A DNA stretch of 64,000 nucleotides from Candidatus Stammera capleta (GCA_036689295.1 CP144785.1:24308-88307), one strand, 5' to 3'; shown: positions 1-64,000, numbered from the stretch's first letter. The notes: generated by a model not told the origin, from the letters alone. A program made the numbers and translations.

Positions 1-1246
1 ATTAATTATTGATGATAAAACTTTTTTTTCATATTCTGATGGAATTAGTTTTAATTCTATTTTTGATAGTATAAAAAAAATTAAATTTTTTTGTTTTGAT
101 AAAATGATTTTTAAAAAATATAATATGTTTTTTTTACCTAATATATCAAATTATTATAGTTTTAAATCTCCTATAGATAATAATTTAAGTAAAAAGAAAA
201 TTGATTTATTATTTTATTTAGATAATTATATTAGAAAAAAAGATAATCGTATTAAATATGTTTGTTTAAATTTTTTTAGTAGTTATGATGTTATTTTGAT
301 TGTTTCTACTGATGATATATTTATAGGTGATGTTAGACCTTTAATACATTTATCTATTAAAGTAAAGTTTGAGGAAGATAATTTAAATGAATTAGGATTT
401 AGTAGTGGTGGAGGTCGTTATTCATATGATGAATTTGTTTTAAAGAAAAAAAATAATATTAGTTTTGTTAATTATATAGCTGATGAGTCAATTAGAATAG
501 GTAGAAATAATTTAAAAGCTATAAATTCTCCTGCTGGTAATATACCTATTGTTTTGGGTAGTGGTTGACCTGGTGTTTTATTTCATGAATCTGTAGGTCA
601 TGGTTTAGAAGGAGATTTTATACGTAGAAAAACTTCTATATATTATAATATGTTAGGTAAAAAAGTAGCTTCTTCTTTATGTACTGTTGTTGATGATGGT
701 ACTTTATATGGTAAAAGGGGTTCTTTGAATATAGATGATGAAGGTACTGTTACTAGTAAAAATATTTTAATTAATGATGGAATTTTAAAATCTTATATGT
801 TAGATAAGTTTAATGCTAATTTAATGAATTTAAAATCTACTGGTAATGCTAGAAGACAATCTTATTGTTTTTTACCTATTCCTAGGATGACTAATACTTA
901 TTTATTACCTGGTAAAAGTAAATTAAGTGATATTATTAGTAGTATTGATTATGGTTTGTATATAGTTAATTTATCTGGTGGTCAGGTTGATATTACTTCT
1001 GGTAAATTTGTTTTTACAGTTTTAGAAGGATATTTAATTAAAAATGGTGTTATTTCTGTACCTGTTAAACAATCTACTTTGATAGGATCTGGTATAGAAA
1101 TTATGAATAAAATTAGTATGGTATCTAATGATTTAAAATTTGATAGTGGTAGTGGTACTTGTGGAAAAGATGGTCAAAATATTCCAGTTGGAGTAGGTCA
1201 ACCTTCTTTAAAAATTGATTCTATGATAGTTGGTGGAATTAATTAA
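1..1246 (+). CDS. tldD: TldD-family metalloprotease (5' end outside window; codon frame starts at nt 2)
   Basis: ORFs 104-568 and 650-1246 are co-frame and joined through TGA 566-568. The junction reads [21 protein letters not shown], which contains the HExxGH motif. The frame is open to the left edge and ends at TAA. Confidence 0.85.
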
Positions 1247-1270
1247 TAATTATTTATATATGGTTATTTT

Positions 1271-1675
1271 ATGAATAAAAATATTAATTGATATATAATT
1301 GATGCTAAAAAAAAAATTTTAGGTAGATTAATTACTAATGTAGTTTATTTTCTTATGGGTAAAAATAAATCTAATTATTTACCTTATAAAGATAATGGTA
1401 ATTATGTTATTTTAATTAATATTAAAGATGTTTTGATTACTGGTAATAAAAAAAAAAATAAAATTTATTATAGTCATAGTGGTTATGTTGGTAATTTAAA
1501 ATCTATTTCTTATGAAAATCTTTTTTTTAAAAACCCTAAGTACGTTATTATTCATGCGGTTAAAGGTATGTTACCAAAAAATCATTTAGGTAAATGTTAT
1601 TTAAAAAGATTAAAAATTTATTTGGATGGTAATCATTTACATTTATCTCAAAAACCTGTTTTTATTAATTTTTAA
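1271..1675 (+). CDS. rplM: 50S ribosomal protein L13
   Basis: ATG at 1271 is co-frame with ORF 1355-1675 through one TGA. The N-terminus [15 protein letters not shown] matches the L13 pattern (W.VDA..LGRL). The rplM-rpsI pair is conserved. Confidence 0.93.
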
Positions 1676-1686
1676 GGTGTAAATTT

Positions 1687-2073
1687 ATGTATTATAGTAC
1701 TGGAAGACGTAAAACTTCTTCAGCAAGAGTATTTATGAAGGATGGTATAGGTAAAATATATATAAATAATTTATTGTATAAAAAATATTTTTTTAATAAA
1801 ATAATGCAAAAAATTATTATTCAACCTTTTAAAGTTGTAGATGATTTTAATATAAATAAATTTGATTTTTTTATTACTGTTAAAGGTGGTGGAATTTCAA
1901 GTCAGTCTATTGCAGTAAGACATGGTATTAGTAGAGTTTTATTAAAATATAATAGTAATTTTAAAAGTAAATTAAGAGTTTATGGTTTTATTACTCGTGA
2001 TTCTAGAAAGGTAGAAAGAAAGAAATATGGTTTTAGAAAATCTCGTTGTAGATCACAGTATTCTAAACGTTAA
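1687..2073 (+). CDS. rpsI: 30S ribosomal protein S9
   Basis: [14 protein letters not shown] and [10 protein letters not shown]...RHGISR...[14 protein letters not shown]...YSKR are S9 hallmarks. Confidence 0.95.
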
Positions 2074-2078
2074 TATTT

Positions 2079-5832: not shown

Positions 5833-5891
5833 AATATTTTTTTTAATTCTTAAATTTTTGTTTATTTTAAGAATTTAAATGTTAGTATTAT

Positions 5892-7461
<1,570 letters not shown>

Positions 7462-7469
7462 TTAAGGAA

Positions 7470-7496
7470 AATATTTTATTTTGTATTCTCACAGTA
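7470..7496 (+). other. 3' strand of 16S processing stem
   Basis: Complementary to 5807-5832 (see that feature). Confidence 0.7.
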
Positions 7497-7519
7497 TTTA
7501 TTTTAATTATTGTATTATT

Positions 7520-7592
7520 GTCCTTTTCGTCTAGTGGTTTAGGACATCGCTCTTTCACGGCGATAGCAGGGGTTCGAATCCCCTAGAGGACG
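7520..7592 (+). tRNA. tRNA-Glu (UUC), in the 16S-23S spacer, no encoded CCA
   Basis: gtccttttcgtctagtgg...ctttcac...ggttcgaatcccctagaggacg. It forms a cloverleaf with anticodon loop CTTTCAC and closely resembles E. coli tRNA-Glu. Confidence 0.95.
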
Positions 7593-7595
7593 TAT

Positions 7596-7607
7596 TGTTC
7601 TTTTATA
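7596..7607 (+). promoter_or_regulatory. second boxA-like element in the spacer
   Basis: tgttcttttata lies just after tRNA-Glu. E. coli also has a spacer boxA ahead of 23S. Confidence 0.4.
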
Positions 7608-7635
7608 GTTTGATTTTTTTTTAAAGACATTTTTA

Positions 7636-10570
<2,935 letters not shown>

Positions 10571-10584
10571 TAAAAATGTTTTTA

Positions 10585-10705
10585 TTTCTGGCGGTAATAG
10601 CATAATGGAACCACCTGATACCATTTCGAACTCAGTAGTGAAACGTTATAGCGCTGATGGTAGTATAAGATTATTCTTATGTGAGAGTAAGACGCTGCCA
10701 GAAAT
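10585..10705 (+). rRNA. rrf: 5S ribosomal RNA
   Basis: tttctggcggtaatagc...ccacctga..cca...cgaactcag.agtgaaacg...gctgccagaaat aligns along its length with E. coli 5S. Confidence 0.93.
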
Positions 10706-10709
10706 TTAA

Positions 10710-10784
10710 GGTACGATAGTTCAGATTGGTTAGAATATCAGCCTGTCACGCTGGAGGTCACGGGTTCGAGTCCCGTTCGTACCG
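10710..10784 (+). tRNA. tRNA-Asp (GUC), distal rrn tRNA, no encoded CCA
   Basis: ggtacgatagttcag..ggttagaata..gcctgtcacgc..gggttcgagtcccgttcgtaccg, with anticodon loop CTGTCAC. Confidence 0.95.
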
Positions 10785-10820
10785 TTGCTATTTTTTTTAT
10801 AAGGTATATATATAATTAAA

Positions 10821-11369
10821 ATGTTATATAATAAGAATAATTTAATTTGAATAGATTTAGAAATGACTGGGTTAAATCCAGAAATAAACAAAATTATAGA
10901 AATAGCTACATTAGTTACTGATAATAATTTAAATATTATTTCTGAAGGTCCTAATATTGTAATATATCAAAATAATGATTGTATTTGTAATATGGATAGT
11001 TGAAATAATAAAGTTCATACAAATAGTGGTTTGATAAGTAAAGTAAAAAATAGTATTTTTGATGAAAAAAAAGCTGAAAATATTACATTAAATTTTTTAA
11101 GTAAATTTGTTCCTAAAAATACTTCTCCTATTTGTGGTAGTACTGTTGCTCAAGATAGAAGATTTTTATTTAAATACATGCCTTATTTAGAGTCTTATTT
11201 TAATTATAGATATATTGATGTAAGTTCTTTAAAAGAATTAGTAAAAAGATGATTTCCAAAATTTTCTTTTATAAATAAAAATATTAATAAACATAGTGCT
11301 ATATATGATATTAAAAATTCAATTAAAGAATTAATTTATTATCGTAAAATATTTTTTAATAATGTATAA
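10821..11369 (+). CDS. orn: oligoribonuclease
   Basis: [26 protein letters not shown] (W encoded by TGA) matches the Orn N-terminus. It is co-frame with ORF 11031-11252 and continues to TAA at 11367. The orn followed by tRNA-Gly(GCC) order matches E. coli. Confidence 0.9.
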
Positions 11370-12003: not shown

Positions 12004-13647
12004 ATGAAAATAAATTTTTTACCTGAAGAAACTATAAGAAAAATTTCTGCTGGTGAATTTGTTAATAAATTATATAAAATATTAAAAGAATTATTAGAAA
12101 ATAGTTTAGATGCAAACTCATCTGAAATTAAAATATATTTATTAAATAATGGTTTAGATTTAATTAAAATAGTTGATAATGGTTTTGGTATTAAAAAAAA
12201 TGATTTATTAAATATTATTAAAAGAGATTTTACTAATAAAATTTATTATTTTAAAGATTTAAATAAAATAAATACATTTGGTTTTCGTGGCAAAACTTTA
12301 TCTAGTATTAGTTCTATTTCAAATATTTTTATTTTATCAAAGACTAAATATCAAAGACATGGTTGAATGGTATTTAATAATTCTAATAATTTTTTAAATT
12401 TTTATTTAAAACCTGTTTTACATAAAGTAGGAACAACAATTATAATAAAAAATATTTGTTTATATAAAAAATGCAATAATAATTTTTCATTTTTAAAATA
12501 TAATGAATGAATATTAATAAAAAATATTATATATAATATTGTTATTTCTAATTATAAAGTTAAATTTTCTATTTATAAAGATAATAAATTATGAAGAAAA
12601 TATAATTATTTTAGAAATAATTATTTAAATTTTAAAAATAGTGTAATTAGTATATATGGAAAAAATATATTTAGTAATTATATAAAAATTAATATAAAAA
12701 ATGTTTATTTCAATAATTATGGTTTTTTTTTCTTAAATACAAATAAAATTAATATTATTTATTTAAATAAAAGAATTATATCTAAAGACAATATATTGTA
12801 TTTAATTATAAATAAATTTATAAGAGATAATTATAATTATAATTATAATGTATCTTATATATTATTTTTTTTAATTAATTATAAAGAAATAAATTTAAAT
12901 ATTAGTCCTGATAAAAAAAAAATTTTATTTATAAATCCTTCATTTTGATTTAATGAAATTTATAATAGTTATTTATTATTTTTTAAAAAAAAAAATGTAA
13001 TTAATTCAAAATATTTATATATTAATAAAAAAAAAAAAAAATATATAAATAAAAGTAATGATTATATTCAATATTTTATAAATAATTTTGGATATATTAT
13101 TAATATATTTAATAATCGTTTTTTATGTACTATTAAAAATAAAAATATTATTTTTTTTGATTTATATATAATTTATTATTATTTTAATATATTTATTTTA
13201 AAAGGATTTAAAAATATTTTGATTGTAAAAAAAAATGTTAATAAAGAAATTTTAATTAATAAGATTAATATTATTGATAAATACATAATTAATATAATAA
13301 TTAAATTAGGTATAGATTTTTATTTATATAATAATAAAATTATTATTAAATCTTTACCTTTGGAATTATTAGGTATTAAATTAGATATTTTTTTTAAAAA
13401 TTTATTTTTTTTTTATAATAAACATAAAAAAAATAATAATATTATTAAAATATTAATTTATTGAATTTCTGATTATTTTATTTTAAATAATATTTGAAAT
13501 AATTACAAATCTATGCTATTAATTTCTAGATTTTATGAAGTATATTTTAATTTATTTAATAATAAATTTATTATAAAAAAATTTTTTTTTATTGTTAATT
13601 TTAGTAAAATATCTTTATATATGTTAGATTATTTATATAATGAATAG
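12004..13647 (+). CDS. mutL: DNA mismatch repair protein MutL
   Basis: GHKL ATPase motifs are present: ELLENSLDA, VDNGFGI and FGFRGKTLSSI. A NISPDKKKILF segment aligns with the HPAKHEVRF motif. ORFs 12004 and 13219 are co-frame, I checked the interior codon by codon, and only TGA interrupts. Stop is TAG at 13645. Confidence 0.85.
13027..13041 (+). repeat. A15 homopolymer inside mutL (in frame, KKKKK)
   Basis: Direct count of consecutive A at 13027-13041. Confidence 0.9.
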
Positions 13648-14578
13648 TTTATATAAAAATATCTTTTGTATTTTAGGACCTACTGGTATTGGTAAAAGTT
13701 TAATTTCAATGAAATTATGTGATTTATTACCTTTAGAAATTATAAGTGTAGATTCAGCTTTAATTTATAAATATTTAAATATTGGTACGTGTAAACCTAG
13801 TGAACAAGAACTAATTAAATATCCTCATAAATTAATAAATATTTTGGATCCTAAAGAAATTTATTCTGTTAGTTCTTTTTTTTTTGATGTAATAAATGAA
13901 ATTAAAAATATTTATTATAATAATAAAATACCTTTATTAGTTGGTGGAACTATGATGTATTATAATATTTTATTTAATGGATTATATATATTACCTAAAG
14001 GTAATTTTTATTTACGTAAGTATATAGATTTATTATTTAATAAATATGGTTCTATATATTTATATAATTTATTATATAAAATAGATTATTTATCTTCAAT
14101 TAAGATACATTATAATGATAAATTTAGAATTAAAAGGAATTTAGAAATTTTTTTATCTACTAAAAAAAATGTTACTTATTTTAAAAAAAATAAAAAAAAA
14201 AAATTAAATAATATTAATATTTATAAAATAATTATTTTACCAAATAATAAATTTGATTTAATTAATTCAATAAAAAATAGATTTTATAATATGTTAAATA
14301 TTGGTTTTGAAGATGAAGTTTTATGATTATATAATAGAGGTGATTTAAATATAAATATGCCTTCTATAAAATGTATTGGATATAAACAGATGTGAATGTA
14401 TATACAAAATAAAATTTCTTATAATAAAATGATAGATGATACTATTAATAAAACAATTTATTTAATTAAAAAACAGTATTCTTGATTAAAGAAATGAAAA
14501 AATTCTTATATTGTTAGATTAAATAATTATAATAATTGTATTAAAAATGTTTTTAATTTTATAAATAGACTTATTTAA
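13640..14578 (+). CDS. miaA: tRNA dimethylallyltransferase
   Basis: P-loop GPTGIGKS, VDSALIYK..NIGTCKP and LVGGTMMY. It overlaps the mutL stop by 8 nt and extends through four TGA codons to TAA at 14576. The mutL-miaA order is conserved. Confidence 0.9.
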
Positions 14579-18380: not shown

Positions 18381-18749
18381 ATGTCTACTATTAATCAATT
18401 GGTTCGTAAATCTCGTAATCGTAAAATATTTAAAAATAATGTCCCTGCTTTAAATGGTTGTCCTCAAAAAAGAGGTGTATGTTTAAAAGTTTATACTACT
18501 ACACCTAAAAAACCAAATTCAGCTTTAAGAAAAGTTTGTAGAGTTCGTTTAACAAATGGTTTTGAAGTAACAGCTTATATTCCTGGAGAGGGTCATAGTT
18601 TACAAGAACATTCAGTTGTATTAATAAGAGGTGGAAGAGTAAAAGATTTACCAGGTGTTCGTTATCATGTTATACGTGGATCTTTAGATTGTGAAGGTGT
18701 TAAAAATAGAAAAAGATCACGTTCTAAATATGGTGTGAAAAAGAAATAA
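18381..18749 (+). CDS. rpsL: 30S ribosomal protein S12
   Basis: [12 protein letters not shown]...[24 protein letters not shown] use ATG at 18381 rather than the upstream track start at 18342. Confidence 0.96.
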
Positions 18750-18783
18750 TATTTTTAAAAAATAAAATTAGGATTGATTTTAT

Positions 18784-19260
18784 ATGTCACGTCGTCGTGT
18801 TTTTAGTGTTCGTAATATAGTTCCAGATTATTTATATAATTCTAAATTAGTATCTAAATTTATTAATATATTAATGGTTAATGGAAAAAAATCTATTGCT
18901 GAAAATATTTTATATATTTCTTTAAATATATTGTCTAAAAGAAAAAAAAATAATGATAAATTATTTTTGTTAGAAAATGCTATAAATAATGTTAAACCTA
19001 TTGTAGAAGTTAAATCTCGTAGGGTAGGTGGTACAACTTATCAGATTCCTATAGAAGTTAGACCTTCAAGAGGTTATACTTTAGCAATACGTTGAATAAT
19101 TATTTCAGCTAAAAAAAGATCTAAAAATAAAAGTATGTTTTTAAAATTATCTGATGAATTATTAGATGCAATAGATAAAAAAGGTTTTGCTATTAAAAAA
19201 CGTGATGAAGTACATAGAATAGCTGAATCTAATAAAGCTTTTGCTCATTATAGATGATAA
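18784..19260 (+). CDS. rpsG: 30S ribosomal protein S7
   Basis: ORF 18784-19095 continues through TGA codons to ...NKAFAHYRW. The terminal W is TGA at 19255-19257, followed by TAA. Confidence 0.95.
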
Positions 19261-19303
19261 TATTAATTTTTTTAAAAAAAAGAGTTTTGAGGAATTTATA
19301 TAA

Positions 19304-21427
19304 ATGTATCGTTCGACTTCTATATTAAAATATAGGAATATTGGTATTAGTGCTCATATTGATGCTGGAAAAACTACTTTAACTGAACGTATTTTATTTT
19401 ATACAGGAGTTAATTATAAGTTAGGTGAAGTTCATTATGGTACCGCTACCATGGATTGAATGGAACAAGAACAGGAAAGAGGTATTACTATAACTTCTGC
19501 TTCTACTACTACTTTTTGAAGTGGTATGTATAAACAATTTAGTACCCCTTATAGGGTAAATATTATAGATACTCCAGGTCATGTAGATTTTACTGTTGAA
19601 GTAGAGAGATCTATGAGAATTTTAGATGGAGCAATAATGGTTTATTGTTCAGTTGGTGGTGTTCAACCTCAATCTGAAACTGTTTGGAAGCAAGTTAATA
19701 AATATAATGTACCAAGAATAGCATTTATTAATAAAATGGATCGTGTTGGTGCAAATTTTTTTAATGTTTTAGATCAGTTAAAAACTAAGTTTAGTATTAA
19801 TGTTTTACCAATACAAATTCCTATTGGTTGTGAAGAAAAATTTTTAGGAGTTGTTGATTTATTAACTTTTAAATGTATAATTTGAAAAAATAATGATTTG
19901 GGTATAAGTTTTAATATAGAAGAAGTATCTAATTATAAGGATATATATGATATATCTATTTATTGACGTAATAAAATAATAGAATTTGTTGCTGATAAGT
20001 CTGAAGAATTAATGGATAAATATTTTAATGATATTAATTTTAAAATTTGTGAAATTAAATCTATTTTAAGAAATGAGGTGTTGAATAATAATGTTTTATT
20101 AGTTACTTGTGGGTCTGCTTTTAAAAATAAAGGAATTCAGTGTTTGTTAGATAGTATTATTGATTATTTACCTTCTCCTAAAGATTTAGTTAAAGTAAAA
20201 GGTATTTATAAAAATAATAATATTATTAGAAAAATTAGTGATAAAGAATATTTTTCTGCTTTGGCTTTTAAAGTAGTTAACGATCCTTTTGTTGGTAATT
20301 TAACTTTTTTAAGAATTTATTCTGGTTGTATTAAAACAGGAGATGTTGTATTAAATTCTAATAAAAATAAAAAGGAACGTATTGGTCGTATAGTTCAAAT
20401 GCATGCTAATAAAAAAGATGAAATTAAAGAAATTTTTGCTGGTGATATTGCTGCAGCTATAGGATTAAAGGATGTTAATACTGGTGATACATTATGTGAT
20501 ATTAATAATCCTATTATATTAGAAAAAATTGAGTTTCCTAATCCTGTAATTTCTATATCTTTAGAACCTAAAACTAAATATGATCAAGAAAAAATGGGTA
20601 TTGCTTTATCTAAATTATCTAAAGAAGATCCATCTTTTAAAAATTATTTTAATAATGAATCTAATCAAACTATAATATCTGGTATGGGAGAATTACACTT
20701 AGATATTATTGTTGATAGAATGAAAAGAGAATTTAATGTTGATTGTAATATTGGTAAACCTGAAGTTGCTTATAGAGAAACTATTTTAAATAGTATTAAA
20801 AATATTGAAGGAAAATATATAAAGCAAACTGGTGGTAGAGGACAGTATGGTCATGTTATTATAGATTTATATCCTTTATCTAAAGATGAAATTAGTTTAT
20901 CTAAAGATGGTTATTTATTTATTAATGATATTAAAGGTGGTGTTATACCTAATGAATATATACCTTCTGTAAATAAAGGAATATGTGAACAATTAAAATC
21001 TGGTCCTTTATGTAGTTATCCTGTTACAAATGTTAAAGTTAGATTGTTTTTTGGATCTTATCACGATGTAGATTCATCTGAAATAGCTTTTAAAATGGCT
21101 GCTTCTATAGCTTTTAAAAAAGCTTTTATGAATGCTAATCCTGTTTTGTTAGAACCTATAATGAAGGTTGAAATAGAAACTCCAGAAGAGTATATGGGTG
21201 ATATAATAGGAGATTTAAATCGTCGTAGAGGTATTATAGAAGAAATTAATGATATTCATTTAGGTAAATTATTAAAATCTTATGTTCCTTTATCTGAAAT
21301 GTTTGGTTATGCTACAGATTTAAGATCATATACTCAAGGAAGAGCTTTATATTCTATGCATTTTAATAAATATTCTGTATGTCCTAATCATATATGTAAA
21401 AAAATAGTAGAATTTCGTAATAAATAA
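19304..21427 (+). CDS. fusA: elongation factor G
   Basis: [14 protein letters not shown] and [16 protein letters not shown] (W is TGA at 19457-19459). ORFs 19526 and 20012 are co-frame. Length is 707 aa. Confidence 0.96.
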
Positions 21428-21465
21428 ATATTAATTATAATTTTATAATTTGTGGAATATATTTT

Positions 21466-22650
21466 ATGGTAAAAGAAAAATTTAATCGTTCTAAAATACA
21501 TATAAATGTAGGTACAATTGGTCATGTTGATCATGGTAAAACTACATTAACTTCTGCTATAACTACAGTTTTAGCTAAAAAATATGGTGGTAAACCATGT
21601 GCTTTTGATCAGATAGATAATGCTCCTGAAGAAAAAGCTCGTGGTATAACAATTAATACTTCTCATGTTGAATATGATACTTTATTGAGACATTATGCTC
21701 ATGTTGATTGCCCTGGTCATGCTGATTATATTAAGAATATGATTACAGGGGCTGCTCAAATGGATGGTGCTATTTTAGTTGTAGCAGCTACTGATGGTCC
21801 TATGCCTCAAACTAGAGAACATATTTTACTTGCTCGTCAAGTTGGTGTTCCTTATATTGTTGTTTTTTTAAATAAATGTGATATGGTTAATGATGAAGAA
21901 TTACTTGAATTAGTAGAAATGGAAGTTAGAGATATATTAAATCAATATGATTTTCCTGGTAATAAAACTCCTATAATTAGAGGATCTGCTTTAAAAGCTT
22001 TAGATGGTATAAAAGAATGAGAAGATAAAATTTTATTATTATCTGATACATTAGATAGTTATATTCCTAATCCTGTAAGAAATATAGATCAGTCTTTTAT
22101 AATGCCTATTGAGGATATTTTTTCTATATCTGGTAGAGGTACTGTTGTAACTGGTAGAATAGAAAAAGGAATTATTAAAGTTGGAGAAGAAGTAGAAATT
22201 GTAGGTATACGTAATACTAAAAAATCTATATGTACTGGTATAGAAATGTTTCGTAAATTATTAGATGAAGGTAGAGCTGGAGAAAATGTAGGTATTTTAT
22301 TAAGAGGTATTAAAAGAGAAGAAATTGAAAGAGGTCAGGTTTTATCAAAACCAGGAACTATTAATCCTCATACTTCTTTTGAAGCAGAAGTTTATGTTTT
22401 ATCTAAAGAAGAAGGTGGTAGACATACTCCTTTTTTAAATGGTTATCGTCCTCAATTTTATTTTCGTACTACAGATGTTACTGGTACAATAGATTTACCT
22501 AAAGGAGTAGAAATGGTTATGCCTGGAGATAATGTAAAGATTTTAGTTAAATTATTTAATCCTATAGCTATGGATGAAGGATTAAGATTTGCTATAAGAG
22601 AAGGTGGTCGTACAGTTGGAGCTGGTATAGTTAGTAAAATTATTTTATAA
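21466..22650 (+). CDS. tuf: elongation factor Tu
   Basis: [18 protein letters not shown] and NKCD. The two ORFs are joined by TGA 22018-22020 at the conserved EF-Tu Trp. Length is 394 aa. Confidence 0.97.
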
Positions 22651-22666
22651 ATAAATAATATATATT

Positions 22667-41101: not shown

Positions 41102-42299
41102 TTTTTAATATGTTTATTATTTTTTTTATTTTGTAAATTATATAATTTATTTTAATTATAATATAATCAATTATTATTTTAATAATATTTCCTAAATTTA
41201 TTTTTTTTAGTGATATTAAAAATATTTTTTTATTTAATTTTTTATTATTTTCTTTAATTAATATTTTTCCTAATATTTTATTTTTATTTATAGGTGCTTC
41301 TATTTTTTTAAAATATTTTGTTATTATTTTTTTGTTATTTTTTTTTTTAATACTATATGTAATATATAAATCTTTATTTATTCCTATTGGAACAAAATTA
41401 TTTTTACCAAAATATATTTTTTTATATTTTATTATTTTGTTTTTATCTATTAATTTTTTTGTTTCAAAATTTTTAAATCCTCAATTTAATAATTGTTTTG
41501 TATAGTTATCTCTGTCTTCTATAGATTTTGCACCTAATATAACTGTTATTAATCTAGTATTATTTTTTTTTGCTGAACTTACTAAATTATATCCAGATTT
41601 ATCTGTATGTCCTGTTTTTATACCATCTACATTTAATTTTTTATATCATAATAAATTATTTCTATTTTTTTGATTTATTTTATTAAATATAAATTCTTTT
41701 TTTTTATATATTTTATATGTATTTGGAAATTTTTTAATTAAATTTATACTTAATTTAGCTATATCTAAAGATGTACTATAATGGTTATTATTATCTAATC
41801 CATGTGAATTTGTAAAATTTGTATTTTTTAAATTCATTTTTTTAGAATATTTATTCATTAATTTAACAAATTTTTTTTCATTTCCAGCTATATATTCTGA
41901 TATAGCAACACAAGCATCATTTCCTGATTGTATTATTATTCCTTTATTTAGATCTGATATTTTAACTTTTTGATCTTTAATTAAAAACATTAATGATGAG
42001 TTTTTAAAAATAGGATTTTTATATCATGAATTATATCCTATTGTTACTATATCTTTTAATTTTATTTTATTATTTTTAATATAATCAGATATTATATAAC
42101 TTGTCATAATTTTAGTTAAACTTGCAGGTGGTAATTTTAAATTTATATTTTTTTTAGCTAATATTTTTTCTGAATAATAGTCTATTAAAATATATGATTT
42201 TACATTTTTTATATTTTTAAATTTTATATTATTTGCAAATATTTTGTTATTAATTATTAATATTATTAATAATATTAATATTTTTTTATATATTTTCAT
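41094..42299 (-). CDS. dacA: D-alanyl-D-alanine carboxypeptidase (PBP5/6 class), with signal peptide
   Basis: ASLTK (SxxK), SGND (SxN) and KTGHT (KTG). The N-terminus is hydrophobic. I scanned the frame by hand from 41646 down to TAA at 41094. Its position after mrdA-rodA matches E. coli. Confidence 0.87.
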
Positions 42300-42304
42300 T
42301 TTTT

Positions 42305-43402
42305 TTAGTAAATATTTTTATTTTGTAATGACATTATTATTCCAAACATACACATTGTGCTTAATAATGATGTACCTCCATAACTCATTAAAGGTAATGG
42401 AATACCTACTACTGGTAATATACCTATTACCATTCCTATATTTATTAATATATGTATAAAAAAGTTTATTATTAAATTTGAAATTAATATTTTATTAAAG
42501 AAAAAATTATTATTTATAGATATTAATAAACTTCTAATAATAAGTATTAAATATATTAATAATATTAAACATATTCCTACAAATCCATGTTCTTCAGCTA
42601 TTAATGTGAATATAAAATCAGTTTTATTTTCTGGTATAAAATGAAATTTAGATTGTGTTCCTAAAAAAGTACCTTTTCCATATAAACCTCCTGATCCTAT
42701 AGCTATTTTTGATTGATATGTATGATATCCATTTTTTTTTAAATCATTATTATTTTTATTACTAAATATAGTTATTATTCTTTGTTTTTGATAATTATGT
42801 AACATATATTTCCATATTAATGGAGATATAACTATACCTAATATAGTAAGCATAATTATTATTTTATTATTTAATCCATTTAAATATAGAGGTATTGCTA
42901 AATATAAAATAATTAATATTGATGTTCCTAAATCTGGTTGTATATATATTAATGTAATTGGAATTAATGTTATACTTGTTAGATATATTAAATTTAATAA
43001 ATTATTTATTTTATAATTATTATCACTTAATATTTTATTAATTATTATAGGAATTGATATTTTAATTATTTCTGATGGTTGAAATTTAAAAAAATATAAA
43101 TTTATTCATCTTTGAGCTCCTTTAATAATATTTCCGTTTATAAAAACAAAAAGTAATAAAATATTACATATTATATAAAATAAATATGCATTATTTTTAT
43201 AATATTGTTTATTTAAATTTATTGTTATATATATCATTAATATATAACTTATTATTATATGTATTAATCTTTTAGATATTATTAAAATATCTTTATTACT
43301 AGCACTGTATAAAATTAATAAATTATATGTTAATAATAAAGTTATACATGAAATTATAGTAAAATCTATATTTTTAGTTATATTTTTAATTTTATTTATC
43401 AT
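42305..43402 (-). CDS. mrdB: SEDS-family peptidoglycan polymerase RodA
   Basis: ORFs 42305-42853 and 43106-43402 are co-frame. The protein is multi-pass hydrophobic with QPSE, PDLGT, KIAIGSGGLYGKG and LPLMSYGGTS motifs. Confidence 0.88.
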
Positions 43403-45068
43403 AATTATTGTTTTTAATAAAATCTGTTATTTTTCTCATTATTTCACCAATTCTTGGTCCGTTTCCTCCATGTTCTAATATAATTGTTATTGCAATTTTT
43501 GGTTTTTTATATGGCATAAATACATTCATTAATATATGATCTTTTAAATTTATATTTTTGTTTTTTATATTAATTTTATTATTACCAATTGAATATACTT
43601 GAGCAGTACCTGATTTTGCTGCTAATTTATATTTAGTTCCTATAAAATTTCAATAAGCTGTTCCATTTTTTTTATGTGCTACCCCGTACATACCTTTTTT
43701 AATTATTTTTCAATGTTTTTTATCTACATTTTTTACATATATTTTTTTTTTATATTTATTATTTAATAATAAATGTGGTTTTATAGCATATCCATTATTA
43801 GCAAGTATTATTAAAGCTTTATGTATTTGTATAGGAGTAAAAGATAAATATCCTTGTCCTATACCTATAGATATAGTATCTCCTAGATATCATTTATTAC
43901 CTAATGTATTTATTTTTCATTTTTTATCAGGAAGAAATGATTTTTTTTCGTTAGGTAAATCTATACCAGTTTTATTACCAAATCCAAATTTTTTTATTCA
44001 TTTAATTATTTTATTAATTCCTAAATAATATGATACTTGATAATAAAATGTATCTGAAGATTCTTCTATTGATTTTATTAAATTTACTATTCCATGTCCT
44101 TGTTTTTTTCAATCATAAAATATTTTATTTGATGAAGGTAATTTTCATCATCCAGGATCAAATATTTTAAAATTTTTTTTAATAGCTTTTTCTTCTAGAG
44201 CTGCTATTGCAATATATGGTTTAATTGTTGATGCTGGAGGATAAGTACCTTGTGTTATTTTATTTACTAAAGGATTATTTTTATTATTTATAATTTTATC
44301 ATATTCTTTTTTATATATTTTTCTAGTAAATATATTTGGATTATAACTTGGTACAGAAATTAATGATAATATTTCTCCATTTTTGATATTACTTATTATT
44401 ATTGCAGCATTATTATTTTTAACTAGATTATATACAAAATTTTGTAATTTTAAATCTATTGATAATTTTATATTTTTCCCTATTTTTGATTTTTTAATTT
44501 TAATAGAATTTGTTATTTTTCCTTTATTATTTATGTAATTTTTTTTATATCCTTTTTTTCCTTTTAAAATATTATTATAATATTTTTCTATTCCTGTTTT
44601 TTCAGAATTTTCTTTTTCTCTATAATCTTTTTTAACATAACCTGTTATATGAGCTAAAATATCTTTATATGGATAATATCTATATACTTTTTTTTTAAAT
44701 TTAGGATTAATTAATAATGCTTTATATACATTGTATTTTACAAAATTATTAAAATATATTTTATTTTTATTTTTATATATTTTTTTTTTTAATATATTAT
44801 TATTTTTAATATTTTTTATAACGTAATATTTTTTATTTATTGCTATAGGAATATTATTTCTATCGAAAATATTTCCTCTATATGGTATAATTGGTACAAT
44901 TCTAATATAGTTTTTTTTTGATAAAAAATAATATTTTTTAAAGTTATTTATTTGTAAATTATATATATAAAATAATAAATATATTAATATAAATCCTAAA
45001 AAAATAATTAAAATTTTTATTCTTTCTGTAAAAATTTGTTCTTTTTCTTTTTGATGTATGAATTTCAT
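43392..45068 (-). CDS. mrdA: penicillin-binding protein 2 (elongasome transpeptidase)
   Basis: It has an N-terminal transmembrane segment, PPASTIKP (SxxK), SSD and KSGTA (KTG-type). It continues below ORF 44148 through TGA codons to TAA at 43392, overlapping the rodA start by 11 nt. Confidence 0.87.
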
Positions 45069-47997: not shown

Positions 47998-50796
47998 TTA
48001 AATAAATTTTCTTTTTTCACCTTTACCAATTATATTTTTTATACATCTTTTACATATATTTTTTTTAATATTTTTAATTTTTTCTATATAATTTCAACAT
48101 CTGTTACATTTTATTCCTTTAATTTTTTTACATTTTATAATAAAAAAGTTTTTATTTTTTTTTTTAATTTTTTTTAATTTAGTTTTTGAGACTATAAAAA
48201 AAAATTTTAATTCTGATTTCATTTTATATATAATTTTAAATATTTTTTTTTCTAAATATAGAGTTATTTTTAATTCTAATGATGATTTTATTATTTTTTT
48301 TTTTTTTATTTTTTCTATTTTTTTATTTAGATGATTTTTTATTTTTATTAATTTGTTTCAAATTTTTGTGTTAATTTTATTATTTTTATGTAAATAAAAT
48401 AATTTATTAAATCATGTTTCTTCATATATATATTTAGTTTTTTTTCTTGGTATATATTTTCATATTTCTTCTGTTGTAAATGATAATATTGGTGATATTC
48501 ATTTTACTATTGATTCTAAAATCATTCACATTGTTGTTTGAGCGCTATAATATGGTATAGTATTTTTTTTAATTATATATTTTCTATCTTTTATTATATC
48601 TAAATATATTGAACTTAAATATTTACTACAAAAATTTATTATTATTTTTATTACTTTATAAAATTTAAATTCATTATAAAATTTTATTATTTTATTTTGT
48701 GTTTTTTTTGTTTTATGTATTATTCATTTATCTATTAGAATCATATATTTTTTTTTAATAAAATTTTTTTCAGGATCAAATTCATCTAAATTAGATATTA
48801 AAAATTTTATTGTATTTCTTATTTTTCTATATGATTCTGTAATTCTTAATATTATTTCATTTGATATTTTAATTTCATTAAAATATTTTACTGAAGATAC
48901 TCATAATCTTAATATATCGCAACCAAATTTATTTATTATCTCATTAGGTTTTATATTATTTTTTAGTGATTTAGACATTTTTTCTCCTTTTTCATCTACT
49001 ATAAATCCATGTGATATTACTGTTTTATATGGAGGTTCATTTTTAATAGCAGTATGTATTATAAGAGATGACATAAATCAACCTCTAAATTGATCTGATC
49101 CTTCAATATATAAATCTATATTTTTTTTTTTTTTAAATTTTTTATTCATTATTGTAAAACAAGTAGATCCTGAATCGAATCATACATCTAATACGTCTGA
49201 TACTTTTTCATATTTAGTGTGTTTTTTTCCTAAAAATTTTTTTTTATCTAAATTTATTCAATAATTTGGTCCTTTTTTTTCTATTTTTGATGATATTTTT
49301 TTTATTAAATATATTGTTTTTGGGTGTATTTTTTTTGTTTTTTTGTTTAAAAAAATAGGTATTGGTGTTCCTCAGATTCTTTGTCTAGATATACATCAAT
49401 TAGGTCTGTTTATTATCATTTTTTTTATTTTTTTATATCCTCATTTTGGAATTCATTTTACTTTTTTAATAGAAATTAATAATTTTTTTTTAAAATTATT
49501 TTTATTTAGATTAATGAATCATTGATATGTAGATTTTATTATTATAGGTTCTTTATGTCTTCAACAATATGGATATTTATGTTTTATATATTCTTTTAAT
49601 ATTAATTTGTTATTTTTTATTAATTTTTTTATTATTAATTTTTCTGCTTTTTTTATTGTTGTTTTATATATATTTTTTATATATTTATAATTTATATAAA
49701 GTCCATCATTATCAATAACATTAATTCCTTTTATGTTATTTTTTTTTGATAATATTTTATCTTCTTCTCCATGTTCTGATGCTATATGTACTATTCCTGT
49801 TCCTGTATTTTTTTCTATATTTTTATCTAATATTATAGGTATTTTATTTTTTGATATTGGATGATAAACAAATAATTTATTTAATATTATTCCTTTTATT
49901 TTTGTTATTTTTTTTATTTTTTTTTTTAATTTTTCAGTAAATATTTTAATTCTATTTTTTAATATTATAAATATTTTTTTATTATTTAATATTAAATAAT
50001 ATGTATATTTTGGATTTACTGATATAGCACAATTTCCAGGAATTGTTCATGTTGTAGTAGTTCATATTATTAGTTCTATATCATATTTATGATATTTTTT
50101 TTTGATTTTAATTTTTTTAAATATTTTTTTTTTATTTTTTAATTTAAATAATATATATGTTGATATTGTTTTTTTATATTTATATTCTATTTCTGCTTCT
50201 GATAATGATGATTTACATATTAAACATCAATTTATTGGTTTTTTTTTTCTTTCTATTAAATTTAATTTTATTATTTTTCCTAATGTTCTTATTGTGTTTG
50301 CTATTGTTTTAAAGTTATTTGTGTTATAAATATTATTTCAATTACATAATATTCCTAATTTTTTAAAATCATTTTTTTGTTTATTTATTTGTTTATTTAC
50401 ATATTTTAAACATTTTTTATTGAAATTTATTTTATTTATTTTATTTATATTTTTAAATATTTTATATTTTTTAATTATTTCTAATTCTATAGGTAATCCA
50501 TGACAATCTCATCCAGGTTTATAAGGGGTATAAAAATTCATAAAATTTTTATATTTTATTATTATATCTTTTAATATTTTGTTTAAAGCATGTCCTATGT
50601 GAATATTTCCGTTTGCATATGGTGGACCATCATGAATAATATATTTTTTTTTATTTTTTTTTTTTATTATTATATTATATATTTTATTTTTCTCTCATTT
50701 TTTAATTATTTTAGGTTCATTTATATTTAAATTAGCTTTCATAGGAAAGTTAATTTTTGGTAAATTAATTGTTTTTTTATAGTTTATATTTTTCAT
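47998..50796 (-). CDS. ileS: isoleucine--tRNA ligase
   Basis: The reverse complement starts [23 protein letters not shown], followed by [19 protein letters not shown] (the HIGH motif) and [10 protein letters not shown]. The C-terminus has a CNRCW...CKRC zinc motif. Length is 932 aa. I hand-checked the 3' end but not the whole frame. Confidence 0.88.
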
Positions 50797-55452: not shown

Positions 55453-56595
55453 ATGAAATTATCTTATTTTACTTCTGAATCTGTTTCTGAAGGTCATCCA
55501 GATAAAGTAGCGGATCAAATATCTGATTCTATATTAGATTATATTATTAAGAGAGATAAACATGCTAAAGTAGCATGTGAAGTATATATTAAATCTGGTA
55601 TTGTTATAGTTGGAGGTGAAATTAATACTAATTTAAATATAGATTTAGAAAATATTGTTAGAAATACTATAAGAAAAATAGGTTATATAGATTCTTCTTT
55701 AGGTTTTGATGCTAATACCTGTGGTATAATAAATATTATTAGTAAGCAATCTTCTGATATATCTTTGGGATTAGGTAATAATAAAGATATTAGAGCAGGT
55801 GATCAAGGTATAATGTTTGGTTATGCTTCTAAAGAAACTGATGTTTATATGCCAGCTCCTATAATTTATGCTCATAATTTAGTTAAAAAACAATCTGAAT
55901 TAAGAAAAAAAAAGATATTACCTTGATTATATCCAGATGCTAAAAGTCAATTAACTTTTATCTATAATGATGATAATAATATAATTGGTATAGATTCTGT
56001 AGTTTTTTCTACTCAACATTCTTCTTGTGTTTCTGATAAAATATTAAAAGAATCTATTATGGAAGAAATAATTTATAATGTTTTACCTACTAAATGGTTA
56101 AATAAGTATACTAAATATTTTATAAATCCTATTGGTAGATTTGTTATAGGTGGTCCTTTTGCTGATTGTGGTTTAACTGGTAGAAAGATAATAGTTGATA
56201 CTTATGGTGGTATGGCTAGACATGGCGGAGGGTGTTTTTCAGGAAAAGATCCTTCAAAAGTTGATAGGTCTGGTTCTTATTTAGCAAGATATATAGCTAA
56301 AAATATTGTAGCAGCTAATTTATCAGATAAATGTGAAATACAATTGTCTTATGTTATAGGTTGTTCTAAACCTATATCTATTATGATAAATACTTTTGGC
56401 ACAGAAAAAATTTCTTTAGATTTTTTAAATAAATTAATTATTAAAGTTTTTGATTTTAAATTAAATAATATAATACATAGTTTAGATTTATTAAAACCTA
56501 TATATTTTAATACTTCTGTTTATGGTCATTTTGGTAGAAATGAATTTTCTTGAGAAAGTTTAAATAAAGTTAATGATTTATTAAAATTTATTTAA
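55453..56595 (+). CDS. metK: S-adenosylmethionine synthase
   Basis: [67 protein letters not shown]. Pieces are co-frame through TGA. Confidence 0.96.
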
Positions 56596-57235: not shown

Positions 57236-58273
57236 ATGAATAAAATTAATTTGTTGAATTTTAATTTAAGTATGATGGAAGAATTTTTAGTTAAAAGATT
57301 AAATCAAAAAAAATTTGTAGCTAAACAAATATTTTATTGAATATATAAAAAATTTTGTTTTGATTTTTTTTTAATGAATAATTTAAGTTTATATTTAAGA
57401 AATGAATTAAATTATTATTTTAAAATTAAATTACCAATTTTATTTAAATATAAAATATCTTGTGATAAAACTATTAAGTTATTTTTTAATGTTAATGGTG
57501 ATATTATTGAAACTGTTTATATACCTGAAAAAAAAAGAAATACTTTGTGTATATCTACTCAAGTTGGTTGTATGTTAAATTGTTCTTTTTGTTCTACAGG
57601 TAAAATGGGATTTAAACGTAATTTAAATATATCAGAAATTATTGGTCAATTATTATTTGTTATGTCTAATAGAAAAAAATTTAATTTTATTACTAACATA
57701 GTATTTATGGGTATGGGTGAACCTTTGTTAAATTTTTACAATGTTGTTAATTCTATAAATATTATATTGGATAAAAAATTTTTTTCTTTTTCTAAGAGAA
57801 AAGTTGTTTTATCTACTTCTGGAATTACTCCTATGATATATAAGTTAAAAAATTATATTGATGTAATATTAACTTGATCTTTACATGCTTCTAACGATAA
57901 ATTAAGAAATAAAATTATGCCTATAAATAAAAAATATAATATTAATTCTATTTTAGATTCTATTATTTTTTATATTAATAATACTAAAGCTAATAGAGGT
58001 AAAATTTATATTGAATATATTATGATTGATAAATTTAATGATAACATTATTAATGTTTATGAGTTAGTTAGTTTATTTAAAAATTTTTCTGTTAAATTTA
58101 ATTTAATATCTTTAAATAATAATTTTAATAATATATACTGTAAAAGTAGTAATAATAGAATTTTTTATTTTAATAATTTATTGAAAGAAAATGGTATATT
58201 TTCATATATTAGAAAAGTTAGAGGTTTAGATATATTTGCTTCATGTGGTCAATTATCTGGTATATTTGATTAA
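57236..58273 (+). CDS. rlmN: dual-specificity rRNA/tRNA A-C2 methyltransferase (radical SAM)
   Basis: INLLNF and FVAKQIFYWIY (TGA), the CxxxCxxC cluster GCMLNCSFCSTG, MGMGEPL and a C-terminal ASCGQL. Three pieces are co-frame. Confidence 0.88.
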
Positions 58274-59792: not shown

Positions 59793-61211
59793 ATGTATAC
59801 TATAGCTTTGGTTGGAAATACAAATGTAGGAAAGACAAGTTTATTTAATTTTTTAACTAATAGTAATTTTTTAAAATCTTGTAATGAAAAATATTTTACT
59901 TTAGATTTTAGTTATAATTTTTTATATAATTATAAAAGAAGTATTATTTTAATTGATACATGTAGTTTTAAAAAAAATGATTTTTTAAAGTTATATTTAA
60001 ATAAAAAAAAAAAAGTTTATAAATTTTTTTCTTTGATAGAAAAAAAATTTATTTTTATATTAAGAAATGTTAATTTTATTTTTTTTTTAATTGACGCTAG
60101 AAATATTTCTGATAGTGATATATTTTATATTCGTTTATTATTTAAAATAAATAAAAATATTATATTAATATTATCTAAATTTGATTTGTATAATAATTTT
60201 TTTTTTAATAAAAATATTTTTTTAAATTTAGGTATAAGTAAAATTTTTACTTCATCTATATATAATAAGAATAATTTTAAAAAAATATTTGATATTATAT
60301 TTAATAATTTTAGTTCAAATAATATTAATTGATTTTTTATTAAAAAAATTATTTTTTGTTGTATAAATATAGAAAATAATATTTTTTATTTTAAAGATTA
60401 TAATAATAATTATTCAAAATTTAATATTATTAAGTTATTAATATTAGGAAAATCTAATATAGGAAAATCATCTTTATTTAATTTATTTTGCAATATAAAT
60501 AGATCTTTTATTTCTAGTTTAGATTATACTACTAAAGATTTTATAACATATGGTTTTTTTTATAATAAATATAATTATTTTTATTTAAGTGATTCTCCTT
60601 TTATTCATAAAAAAATTGTTAATTATGATTATATATTTGATATTATTAAATATAGTTTTAAAATAATATTATATATTGTTGATATTAATTTAGGTATAAC
60701 TAAATATGATTTATGATTTTTGAATTTTATTTTTAAATGTGGTAAAATAGTAATATTAATATTTAATAAATGTGAAAAATTAAATATTAATTATATAAAT
60801 AAATATAAATTATTTTTACTTAAAAAATATGATTTTATAAAATATGTTGATATATATTTTTTATCTTCTATAAAATTTAAAAAAAAATATTTTTTAAAAA
60901 TATATAAAAATATATTTTTGAATTATAAAAATATATTTTTATATAAAATAGATAATAATAAGTTAACTAAGTTGTTAAAATTAGCTATAAAAAGTAATAT
61001 TTTTAATTTTAATAATTTTAAATTAAGATATGCTTGTATAGTTAAGTATTATCCTTTAATAATAGTTATATATGGTAATAAAATAAATTTAATAAATAAT
61101 AGTTATAAAAAATATTTATTAAATTATTATATTAAATTTTTAAATATTAAAGGTTTTAAAATTTTTTTAAAATTTAAAGAAATATATAAACCTTTTAAAT
61201 ATAAAAAATAA
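59793..61211 (+). CDS. der: ribosome-associated tandem GTPase Der (EngA)
   Basis: There are two P-loops, GNTNVGKTSLFN and GKSNIGKSSLFN, plus a C-terminal KH-like domain. ORFs 59793 and 60720 are co-frame. The hisS-der order matches E. coli. Confidence 0.85.
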
Positions 61212-61212
61212 T

Positions 61213-61625
61213 ATTAAATTGACAATCGCTATTTAATTATTTTTTTAAAAATAGAGGAAAGTCCGGACTCCTTAGGAAAAGATGCCAGATAACATCTGGA
61301 AAAAATATTTATTTATTTTATGAATAGTACAACAGAAAATAACCGCCAATTTATTTTTTTTGGTAAGGGTGAAAAAGTATGGTAAAAGCATACTATATAT
61401 TATAGTAATATAATATATGTGTAAACTCCATTTGGAGCAAGATTAATTTTAAAAAATAAATATTTATATTTATTTATAATTAAATATAAAACAATATATT
61501 TTTCCGTATATATATTTATTTTTTTTGGTAAATCGCTTGAGTTAATAAGTAATTATTAACCTAGATTAATGGTTGTCTTATTTATATATTTATATAAATA
61601 AACAGAATCCGGCTTAAAATTTAAT
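61213..61625 (+). ncRNA. rnpB: RNase P RNA (type A)
   Basis: gaggaaagtccggactcc, gatgccag.taac, acagaaaataaccgcc, ggtaagggtgaaa, gtaaactcc...ggagcaag, cgcttgag, cctagat.aatg and acagaatccggctta are all present in the E. coli M1 order. A P1-like pairing attaaatt/aatttaat defines the ends, which are approximate. Confidence 0.88.
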
Positions 61626-61661
61626 TTTATTTTTTTTATTAAATTTATTATTTTTTAAAAA

Positions 61662-63029
61662 ATGTTAAAAATTTTTAATTCTGTTAGTAATAAAAAAGAA
61701 ACTTTTAATTTTTCTAAAAATAAATGTATTAATATTTATGTTTGTGGAGTTACTGTATCAAATTATTGTCATATAGGTCATGCTAGAACATTTTATTTTT
61801 TTGATATTTTTATAAGATATTTAGTTTATTTAGGTTATAAATATAATTATATTAGAAATATTACAGATATAGATGATAAAATAATTTTTTATTCAAATAA
61901 AAACAACATTAATATTAGTGAAACATCTAATTTAATGATAAATTATATGAATAATGATTTTAAAAAATTGGGATTTATAAAACCTAATTTAGAACCTAAA
62001 GTTACTGATCATATTGATTTAATTATTAAATATATATTAATTCTTATTAAGAAAAAATACGCATATATTTCTGTTAATGGTGATGTATTATTTAATATTA
62101 ATAATTATAGATTAATTTATAATAAATTTAATTTATTTAATTATAAATTTTCAAATAATAATAAAGATTTTGTATTATGAAAATTAAGTATTAATTCTAA
62201 ATTTAATAGTTTTGGATGATATTCTCCTTGAGGTTTAGGTAGACCTGGTTGACACATAGAATGTGTTGTTATAAGTAATAATTATTTTAAAAATATTACT
62301 ATTCATGGAGGAGGTATTGATTTATGTTTTCCTCATCATGAAAATGAATATATTATATCTAAATGTTTATTTAGAAAAAAATATAATATTAAATATTGAA
62401 TTCATACAGGTATAGTAATTCATAATGATAGTAAATTGTCAAAATCTAAAAATAGTTCTTTTTTTATTAAAGATTTATTAAAAAAATATGATTCAGATGT
62501 TATTAAATATTATTTAATGTCTAATCATTATAGAAGAAATTTAAATTTTAGTTTTAATAATTTAAATCAATATAAAAAATCTTTTAAAAAAATATATTTA
62601 TGTTTAAAAAATTTAAATTTAAATATTTTTTTATCTAAAAAAGATTTATTATATCTTAATAATTTTGATTATTATTTTAATATGTATATGAATAATGATT
62701 TTAATATACCTAATGTATATAAATTATTTTTTTTTATGGTAAATAAAATAAATAAATTAAAAAAAAAAAATAATTTTTTGTTAGCTAGTAAAATTGGTAT
62801 TAAATTAAAAAATTTTGCTAATATTTTAGGTTTATTAAATAATAATAAAAATAATTTAAATAAAAGTAATATTTTTTTTGTTAAAAGAATTAATTGATTA
62901 ATAAAATTAAGAAATTTAGCTAGAAAACTTAAAAAGTGAAAATTAGCTGATTGAATACGAAAAAAAATATATAAAAATAATATCTTTATAAAAGATAATA
63001 TTAATGATACTGAATGATATTTTAATTAA
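61662..63029 (+). CDS. cysS: cysteine--tRNA ligase
   Basis: [17 protein letters not shown] (HIGH), GRPGWHIEC (TGA), HGGGIDL.FPHHENE and KLSKS. Pieces are co-frame and it ends ..TEWYFN at TAA 63027. Confidence 0.92.
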
Positions 63030-63876
63030 TTTTATTATATATTTTAATAATATTTTTTAATAATATTGATATAGTCATAGGGCCAACTCCTCCTGGTATT
63101 GGAGTTATATATTTTATTTTGTTTATTATTTTTTTTTTATTTATATCTCCAGTTAATTTTCCTTTTTTATTTATATTTATTCCTATATCTATTATTATAG
63201 AATTTTCTTTTATATATTTTATTGGATATTTATCAAATTTTCCTATAGCACTTATTAATAAATCTGTTATTTTTAAATATTGTTTAATATTTTTTGTTTT
63301 ACTATTTACTAATGTTACTGTACATCCTTTATTTATTAGTTCTATCATCATCGGTTTTCCTACTAGATTTGATGATCCTATTATTAATATATTTAATTCT
63401 TTTATGTTTATATTATAATATTTTAATAATTTTATTACTCCATAAGATGTACATGGTCTTATTGAATAATTTCCTTGAAATAATTTTCCTATATTATAAG
63501 CATGTAATCCATCTACATCTTTTTTTGGACTTATATTATTTATTATTTTATTAGTATTGAATTTTTTAGGTAAAGGTAATTGTAATAGTATACAGTGTAT
63601 TTTTTTATTTTTATTTATTTTTTTAATTTTATTTATTATTTTTTTTTCATTTATATTTTTATTGTAATTATATATTTTATATTTAATTCCTACATAATTA
63701 AAATTAATACATTTATTTTTTATATATATATTTGATGATATATTATTACCTATATTTATTATGGCAATATTTGGTATGTTTTTTTTTTTTTTAATTAATA
63801 TTTTTATTTTTTTTTTTATTTTTTTTTTTGTTTTATTTAAATATTTTTTACCATATAAAAAATTATATTTTTTCAT
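63022..63876 (-). CDS. folD: bifunctional methylenetetrahydrofolate dehydrogenase/cyclohydrolase
   Basis: LQLPLP, KDVDG, PCTSYG, IIGSSNLVGKPM and ITPIPGGVGPMTI. Confidence 0.93.
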   Translation of the reverse strand: MKKYNFLYGKKYLNKTKKKIKKKIKILIKKKKNIPNIAIINIGNNISSNIYIKNKCINFNYVGIKYKIYNYNKNINEKKIINKIKKINKNKKIHCILLQLPLPKKFNTNKIINNISPKKDVDGLHAYNIGKLFQGNYSIRPCTSYGVIKLLKYYNINIKELNILIIGSSNLVGKPMMIELINKGCTVTLVNSKTKNIKQYLKITDLLISAIGKFDKYPIKYIKENSIIIDIGININKKGKLTGDINKKKIINKIKYITPIPGGVGPMTISILLKNIIKIYNKIN

Positions 63877-63935
63877 TATTAGTTGACTTTTAAAATTTAT
63901 TGAGTTAGAATTTTTTTAAAATTAAATTTATATAT

Positions 63936-64000
63936 ACGCTCTTAGCTCAGTGGATAGAGCTACAGCCTTCTAAGCTGTAGGTCACAGGTTCAAATCCTGT
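63936..64000 (+). tRNA. tRNA-Arg (UCU), 3' end cut by the window edge
   Basis: acgctcttagctcagtggatagagctacagccttctaagctgtaggtcacaggttcaaatcctgt has anticodon loop CTTCTAA and resembles E. coli argU. The exact 5' end is uncertain. Confidence 0.85.

Follow-up and report, generated by a model that had tools for sequence, protein, structure and literature searches.

How is the codon UGA read in Candidatus Stammera capleta, and what became of the genes that once ended with it? The question is raised by a stretch of 64,000 nt from this gammaproteobacterium (Enterobacterales), an extracellular and pectin-degrading symbiont of Cassidinae leaf beetles (CP144785.1:24308-88307, assembly GCA_036689295.1). 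We call the whole stretch the window; its gene list was curated under translation table 4. Our analysis indicates that the window very probably comes from a Stammera strain using genetic code 4, in which UGA is an ordinary tryptophan (Trp) codon and only UAA and UAG act as stops. A model reading the sequence alone had proposed UGA as Trp throughout the window (the original prediction), and three comparisons now bear this out: alignments to Escherichia coli, columns of 81 IleS homologues, and TGG at the corresponding sites in clade members that kept code 11. The assignment is correct but already published for Stammera. It was reported by Salem et al. in 2017, according to the papers citing that work (PMC10540940, PMC13462651 and the gTranslate preprint, 10.64898/2026.05.24.727570), and code 4 was applied by Garcia-Lozano et al. 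in the annotation of 50 Stammera genomes, 216-340 kb in size (10.1101/2023.12.12.571295).

Read with table 4, the window contains 67 coding sequences (CDS) spanning 88% of the 64 kb, and stop-to-stop open reading frame coverage rises from 48 kb to 70 kb once only TAA and TAG count as stops. Sixty-four of these CDS end in TAA, three in TAG and none in TGA; the original prediction had also arrived at 67 CDS, all ending in TAA or TAG. The same CDS contain 137 in-frame TGA codons against 10 TGG codons, a replacement of UGG by UGA of about 93%. The TGG codons previously pointed out in rplD and rplB are among the ten, confirming that TGG persists. At least one TGA is found in 44 of the 67 CDS (66%), with the largest counts in ileS (23), cysS (9) and mrdA (8), while dnaJ, folD, rlmB and rsmA are among the CDS that have none. 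The statement that every long gene is split by TGA into two to five pieces consequently holds for the splitting itself, not for "every", since 44 of the 67 carry TGA, nor for "two to five", given the 23 TGAs of ileS.

A reading under table 11 would cut the 67 CDS into 204 pieces. Termination at the first TGA would leave the affected genes with on average 36% of their product, and in pgi, ileS, rplM, glyQ, orn, fusA and rpsC a TGA already lies at 2-7% of the gene length. The earlier warning that a code-11 annotation would report false pseudogenes was thus justified: table-11 pipelines would render a healthy minimal genome as some 200 fragments, to be mistaken for a pseudogene graveyard. Taken literally, such a graveyard would mean that the standard code applies, that the TGAs are true stops and that the genes are decaying. 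Pseudogenes do build up in tiny symbiont genomes, and the 204 pieces would look the part. Yet the interrupted genes encode EF-Tu, EF-G, about 20 ribosomal proteins, RpoA, SecY and seven aminoacyl-tRNA synthetases, and none of the 67 frames is broken by TAA or TAG. Conservation continues in frame past every TGA, at full length and with 40-83% identity to E. coli. The alignments described below refute gene decay, to which we assign practically no probability.

Two regions were central to these alignments:

18381-35905, plus strand: the str-S10-spc-alpha block, from rpsL to rplQ and including fusA, tuf, secY and rpoA
47998-50796, minus strand: ileS, with 932 codons, of which 23 are TGA and none TGG; it tests the code most densely and served as our genome marker

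Orthologues extracted from the annotated genome of E. coli K-12 served as the comparison set. Within the str-alpha block, 28 of the 30 TGAs in 31 translation and secretion genes lie opposite an E. coli Trp (tblastn). As a control for bias, TGA was then masked as X and 54 genes were aligned globally to their K-12 orthologues. Of 111 masked TGAs, 85 fall opposite Trp and none opposite Cys or Gly, which corresponds to a binomial P of about 1e-130 if a Trp background of 1.5% is assumed. Conversely, the E. coli Trp positions that are still Trp-coded in the window are written TGA in 85 cases and TGG in 8. The individual sites put forward in the original prediction, namely fusA 19457, tuf 22018, rplB 25307, rpsS 25507, rpsC 26145 and 26157, rplP 27010, rplE 28682 and rpsK 33563, each face an E. 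coli Trp, and all coordinates given there proved correct. For ileS we used 81 standard-code homologues (from Buchnera, Donacia symbionts, Arsenophonus and others): 22 of the 23 masked TGAs sit in columns where Trp makes up at least 92%, the remaining one in a column mixed between Tyr, Phe and Trp. TGA columns that do not coincide with Trp, the observation that had been named as speaking against the prediction, are the minority in both tests. Such non-random placement is also not what decaying genes would produce.

The same counts bear on whether UGA might stand for another residue, that is Gly (code 25), Cys (code 10) or selenocysteine. There are precedents, as UGA is read as Gly in Gracilibacteria and Absconditabacteria and as selenocysteine at special sites in many bacteria. 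The absence of any masked TGA opposite Gly or Cys, the Trp-dominated ileS columns and the TGG found at 65 of 82 aligned TGA sites in the code-11 relative CP144771.1 (see below) refute these assignments through codon-to-column counts, and 137 sites far exceed any selenoproteome. We consider the chance of such a reading negligible.

The cases singled out as most telling in the original prediction are the ends of two ribosomal proteins, where the terminal Trp is written TGA and followed by TAA, as had been proposed:

19255-19260, plus strand: terminal Trp of S7 (rpsG) as TGA, then TAA (AGA TGA TAA, 19252-19260)
29254-29259, plus strand: terminal Trp of S14 (rpsN) as TGA, then TAA (AGT TGA TAA, 29251-29259)

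CP144771.1 has TGG-TAA at both places (...CAT TAT AGA TGG TAA for S7 and ...TCT AGT TGG TAA for S14), while another relative, CP043983.1, ends S7 with TGA TAA and S14 with AGT TGA TAA as the window does. The TGAs are not assembly errors, because a contig of the independent Logan assembly SRR27267667 (3.6 kb, carrying rpsJ) agrees with window 20804-24373 along all 3,570 bp (100% identity).

The IleS of the window has a counterpart with 100% identity on a 282,577-bp contig at NCBI, and the next 36 IleS matches, with 57-71% identity, come from genomes of 212-325 kb; IleS of Donacia symbionts and Buchnera reaches at most 53%. Among those relatives, CP024013.1 (271,175 bp) is Candidatus Stammera capleta (PMC9543054). 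Further relatives are CP043983.1, CP144853.1, CP144822.1, CP144787.1 and CP144771.1, with assemblies in the GCA_0366892xx-5xx range, and GCA_036689315.1 from this range is called S. capleta in the gTranslate preprint (10.64898/2026.05.24.727570). A neighbour-joining tree of IleS, a single-gene distance tree in which compositional bias is possible, nests the window in a clade with CP024013.1, as sister to CP043983.1. Gene order is colinear with the relatives (loci L005-L008 and L021-L024) along two runs, cysS-der-hisS-tsaB-glyA-dnaJ-dnaK-ileS-rsmA-rpsT-pgi-...-glyS-glyQ-rplQ-rpoA and hflX-rlmB-fmt-def-rpsL...rpoA. Both the contig size of 282,577 bp and the G+C content of the window (19.1%) lie inside the Stammera range (about 0.22-0.34 Mb and 14-20% G+C; published G+C values are 13.9-20.4%). 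The tentative assignment to the Stammera lineage thus agrees with tree, IleS identity and synteny, although the name is reached through a chain of an identical protein, a clade with a named accession and a batch of accessions. The broader description as an Enterobacterales-like symbiont is likewise upheld by 86% identity to E. coli in 16S and 83% in EF-Tu, and by conserved E. coli gene strings (rpsL-rpsG-fusA-tuf-S10-spc-alpha, orn-tRNA-Gly-tsaE-mutL-miaA-hflX, dnaK-dnaJ and mrdA-rodA-dacA). GTDB contigs scanned with the window SecY returned only an unrelated Bacilli metagenome-assembled genome and an archaeon, the patterns being low-complexity and A+T-rich; Stammera genomes are excluded from GTDB (gTranslate preprint, 10.64898/2026.05.24.727570).

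The most direct evidence that UGA means Trp is provided by the code-11 members of this clade. The same ileS Trp columns are TGA in four relatives (CP024013.1, CP043983.1, CP144853.1 and CP144822.1), whose IleS proteins are only 57-71% identical to that of the window, a persistence of sites that again argues against decay. CP144787.1 and CP144771.1 (17-19% G+C), unlike the window, carry TGG in every one of these columns. In 68 gene calls from three loci, these two genomes show no in-frame TGA, and they use TGA as the stop of pgi, a yfgM-like gene, rplP and rpmD. The 44 orthologues compared contain 77 TGG codons in CP144771.1, of which the window writes 65 as TGA and retains 6 as TGG; seen from the other side, 65 of the 82 aligned window TGAs face TGG. 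The two code-11 genomes otherwise resemble the window in clade, synteny and low G+C, with proteins 45-88% identical. The ancestral state, with TGG for Trp and TGA as a stop, thus survives in two clade members. This comparison reproduces the picture of the gTranslate preprint, in which five basal Stammera genomes still use code 11 and retain prfB, the gene for release factor 2 (RF2) (10.64898/2026.05.24.727570).

With the code-4 members, represented by the reference CP024013.1, the window shares clade, gene order and the lack of TGA stops. TGA occurs in 66% of its CDS against 62% published for the Stammera reference, in which prfB is absent, trnW reads UGG (anticodon CCA) and G+C is 15.4% (PMC10540940, Table 2). 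At only 57-71% IleS identity to the other clade members compared, the window represents a distinct host-specific strain. The code-4 pair CP144822.1/P0036 is placed below the code-11 genomes in the IleS tree, and the gTranslate preprint also places one code-4 genome basal to the code-11 clade, without support (10.64898/2026.05.24.727570). If this branching is real, UGA was reassigned on two occasions or the tree is wrongly rooted.

Several observations weigh against UGA as an ordinary Trp codon. Opposite the 26 masked TGAs that do not face Trp, E. coli has V, A, L, F and various other residues. No tRNA-Trp is found among the six tRNA genes of the 64-kb window, even with a permissive Rfam scan, and no prfB is found within it. 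The gene for RF2, lost in most code-4 Stammera, is kept in some assemblies (10.64898/2026.05.24.727570), and the meaning we give to UGA is drawn wholly from comparing nucleotide and protein sequences. As for the first point, the non-Trp TGAs sit in fast-evolving proteins (mutL, with 24% identity, der, alr and the C-terminus of cysS), where the alignment may be unreliable or Trp may be newly gained. In mutL (12004-13647), five of six TGAs face non-Trp residues of E. coli MutL; its product has 547 aa compared with 615 aa in E. coli, and the frame is otherwise intact.

Since prfB is kept in some code-4 assemblies, the loss of RF2 inferred in the original prediction cannot be assumed for the strain of the window, which could possibly be among those still carrying the gene. 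With RF2 present, the code might be ambiguous, UGA serving both as Trp and as a low-efficiency or context-dependent stop. The Providencia siddallii symbiont of Haementeria acuecueyetzin is a case for which such an intermediate code was put forward (PMC10540940), and one TGA of the window, in rplP (27232-27234), lies exactly at the stop of a code-11 relative. However, TGA outnumbers TGG by 137 to 10, including in genes with the highest expression (tuf, fusA and those for ribosomal proteins) and early in many genes, and it is the stop of none of the 67 CDS. In the leech symbiont, TGA is found in only 20% of the genes and about nine TGA stops remain (PMC10540940), compared with 66% of the CDS of the window. 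We therefore regard an ambiguous code as very unlikely, and full reassignment of UGA to Trp as far better suited to the window.

How would UGA then be read? The rRNA operon of the window lacks the tRNA-Trp gene that its E. coli counterpart has:

5890-10784, plus strand: rRNA operon 16S-tRNA-Glu-23S-5S-tRNA-Asp, with a layout as in E. coli rrnC

In E. coli rrnC, trpT directly follows aspT. The operon of the window is otherwise laid out in the same way, but trpT is absent after tRNA-Asp and orn starts 36 bp past it (10710-10830), which suggests a rearrangement breakpoint just where trpT would be. The remaining RNA genes of the window are RNase P RNA, tRNA-Gly, tRNA-Leu, tRNA-Cys and a truncated tRNA-Arg(UCU), and no tRNA-Trp turned up in eight loci of relatives, each about 21-23 kb long. 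Published Stammera genomes carry a tRNA-Trp(CCA) with a canonical 5-bp anticodon stem (PMC13092985), and code-4 Stammera never have a tRNA-Trp(UCA) (gTranslate preprint, 10.64898/2026.05.24.727570). On the strength of this literature, the UCA anticodon expected in the original prediction is probably wrong for the Stammera lineage.

Changes in rRNA do not appear to contribute to UGA reading and were rejected as its cause, since the decoding, release-factor and peptidyl-transferase stretches compared in 16S and 23S match E. coli. In 16S, the comparison covered the 530 loop, helix 34 and helix 44 (positions 515-535, 1045-1068 with C1054, 1190-1212, 1398-1412 and 1485-1500), all identical. In 23S, identity extends to helix 69, to the sarcin-ricin loop and to the stretches of the peptidyl-transferase centre that were compared. 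The GTPase-associated centre differs from E. coli at three positions, all in the flanking stem.

Following the literature on code-4 Stammera, we propose that RF2 would no longer compete for UGA and that a single tRNA-Trp, with anticodon CCA and a normal 5-bp stem, would read UGA through a C34-A wobble mismatch; strong A+T mutation pressure would then convert TGG to TGA. A further component may be encoded in the window:

13640-14578, plus strand: miaA (tRNA i6A37 dimethylallyltransferase), with four TGAs, full length and 36% identical to E. coli MiaA

Genetic work in E. coli established that the i6A37 modification promotes UGA reading by tRNA-Trp. We infer that i6A37 made by the retained miaA may help the near-cognate reading of UGA in Stammera.

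The second part of our question concerns codons that were stops before the change. C-termini in the window fit E. coli lengths without needing TGA as a stop, with rplP as the sole exception:

27231-27252, plus strand: rplP/rpmC overlap, with ATGA at 27231-27234 in which the presumed old stop would now be sense, and TAA at 27250-27252

The TGA in question, codon 138 of rplP (27232-27234), overlaps the ATG start of rpmC and is the only one that differs in behaviour from a Trp codon inside a gene. L16 is 136 residues long in E. coli, whereas the TGA of the window follows residue 137 and the protein continues through six residues, WLTKDL, to TAA, for a total of 143 aa. The ATGA overlap is kept in CP043983.1, where the L16 tail reads WLTVNF (L024 12624-12645), and in the code-11 genome CP144771.1 rplP ends ...GTT TTA TGA in the same overlap (L023 12672-12675). 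The rplP TGA thus fits an ancestral stop that would have turned into sense at the code change, and it may have been kept because a change from TGA to TAA would destroy the start codon of rpmC.

The other TGA-ended genes of the code-11 loci had different fates. The stop of pgi is TAA in the window, and the yfgM-like gene, located between hisS and der in the code-11 relative, is absent. The L30 gene rpmD, which in that relative (L023 16641-16838) ends in TGA within an ATGA overlap with rplO, is missing between rpsE and rplO in the window (31143-31167) and also from CP043983.1. One may speculate that reassignment left scars at ATGA-embedded stops, the extension or loss of TGA-ended genes being linked to the code change. 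We hold this to be rather unlikely; the ancestral TGA-ended genes compared number four, which makes an anecdote and not a trend. Should such a link prove systematic across the approximately 50 Stammera genomes, what it costs to capture a stop codon could be read from this clade as from a natural experiment.

Other bacteria have recoded UGA to Trp. Zinderia insecticola, Nasuia deltocephalinicola and Hodgkinia cicadicola share with the window a tiny host-restricted genome in which more than 50% of the genes contain UGA. They are Beta- or Alphaproteobacteria, represent independent origins and have lost prfB. The anticodon has changed to UCA in Nasuia and Hodgkinia, whereas Zinderia has CCA with a 4-bp anticodon stem and Stammera CCA with a normal 5-bp stem (PMC13092985). 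The P. siddallii symbiont of H. acuecueyetzin is closer, as an Enterobacterales symbiont that reads UGA as Trp and whose tRNA-Trp anticodon is still CCA, as in published Stammera (PMC10540940). It stands at an early stage, with UGA in 20% of its genes, a prfB that is present and contains its own in-frame UGA, and about nine genes that need UGA as a stop, while in the window the takeover by UGA is completed. Mycoplasmatales (table 4) resemble the window in reading UGA as Trp and in low G+C, but they belong to another phylum, and a dedicated tRNA-Trp(UCA) is present in nearly all of them.

Stammera is one of few Gammaproteobacteria in which UGA means Trp, and this code has been used in its annotation since 2017. 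The interest of the clade lies in how an unchanged CCA tRNA-Trp with a normal stem would read UGA efficiently enough for EF-Tu and ribosomal proteins, and in the coexistence of code-11 and code-4 strains within one syntenic, co-diverging clade, through which the order of events (prfB loss, drift from TGG to TGA, fate of old stops) can be reconstructed. The window adds nothing to the tRNA question; to the order of events it adds the anecdote of the L16 extension.

Gene content beyond the translation apparatus also varies among relatives. The genes alr (35930-37024), dacA-rodA-mrdA (41094-45068), metK (55453-56595) and rlmN (57236-58273) are present in the window and in several relatives and are absent from the syntenic stretch of CP024013.1 (L005), in keeping with publications in which cell-wall genes are accessory in this clade. 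No gene for polygalacturonase or another plant cell-wall-degrading enzyme was found within the 64 kb. Gene packing is very tight around der and the RNase P RNA gene (59793-61632), where the TAA stop of der (61209-61211) is overlapped by two bases by the Rfam match to RNase P RNA, which starts at 61210.

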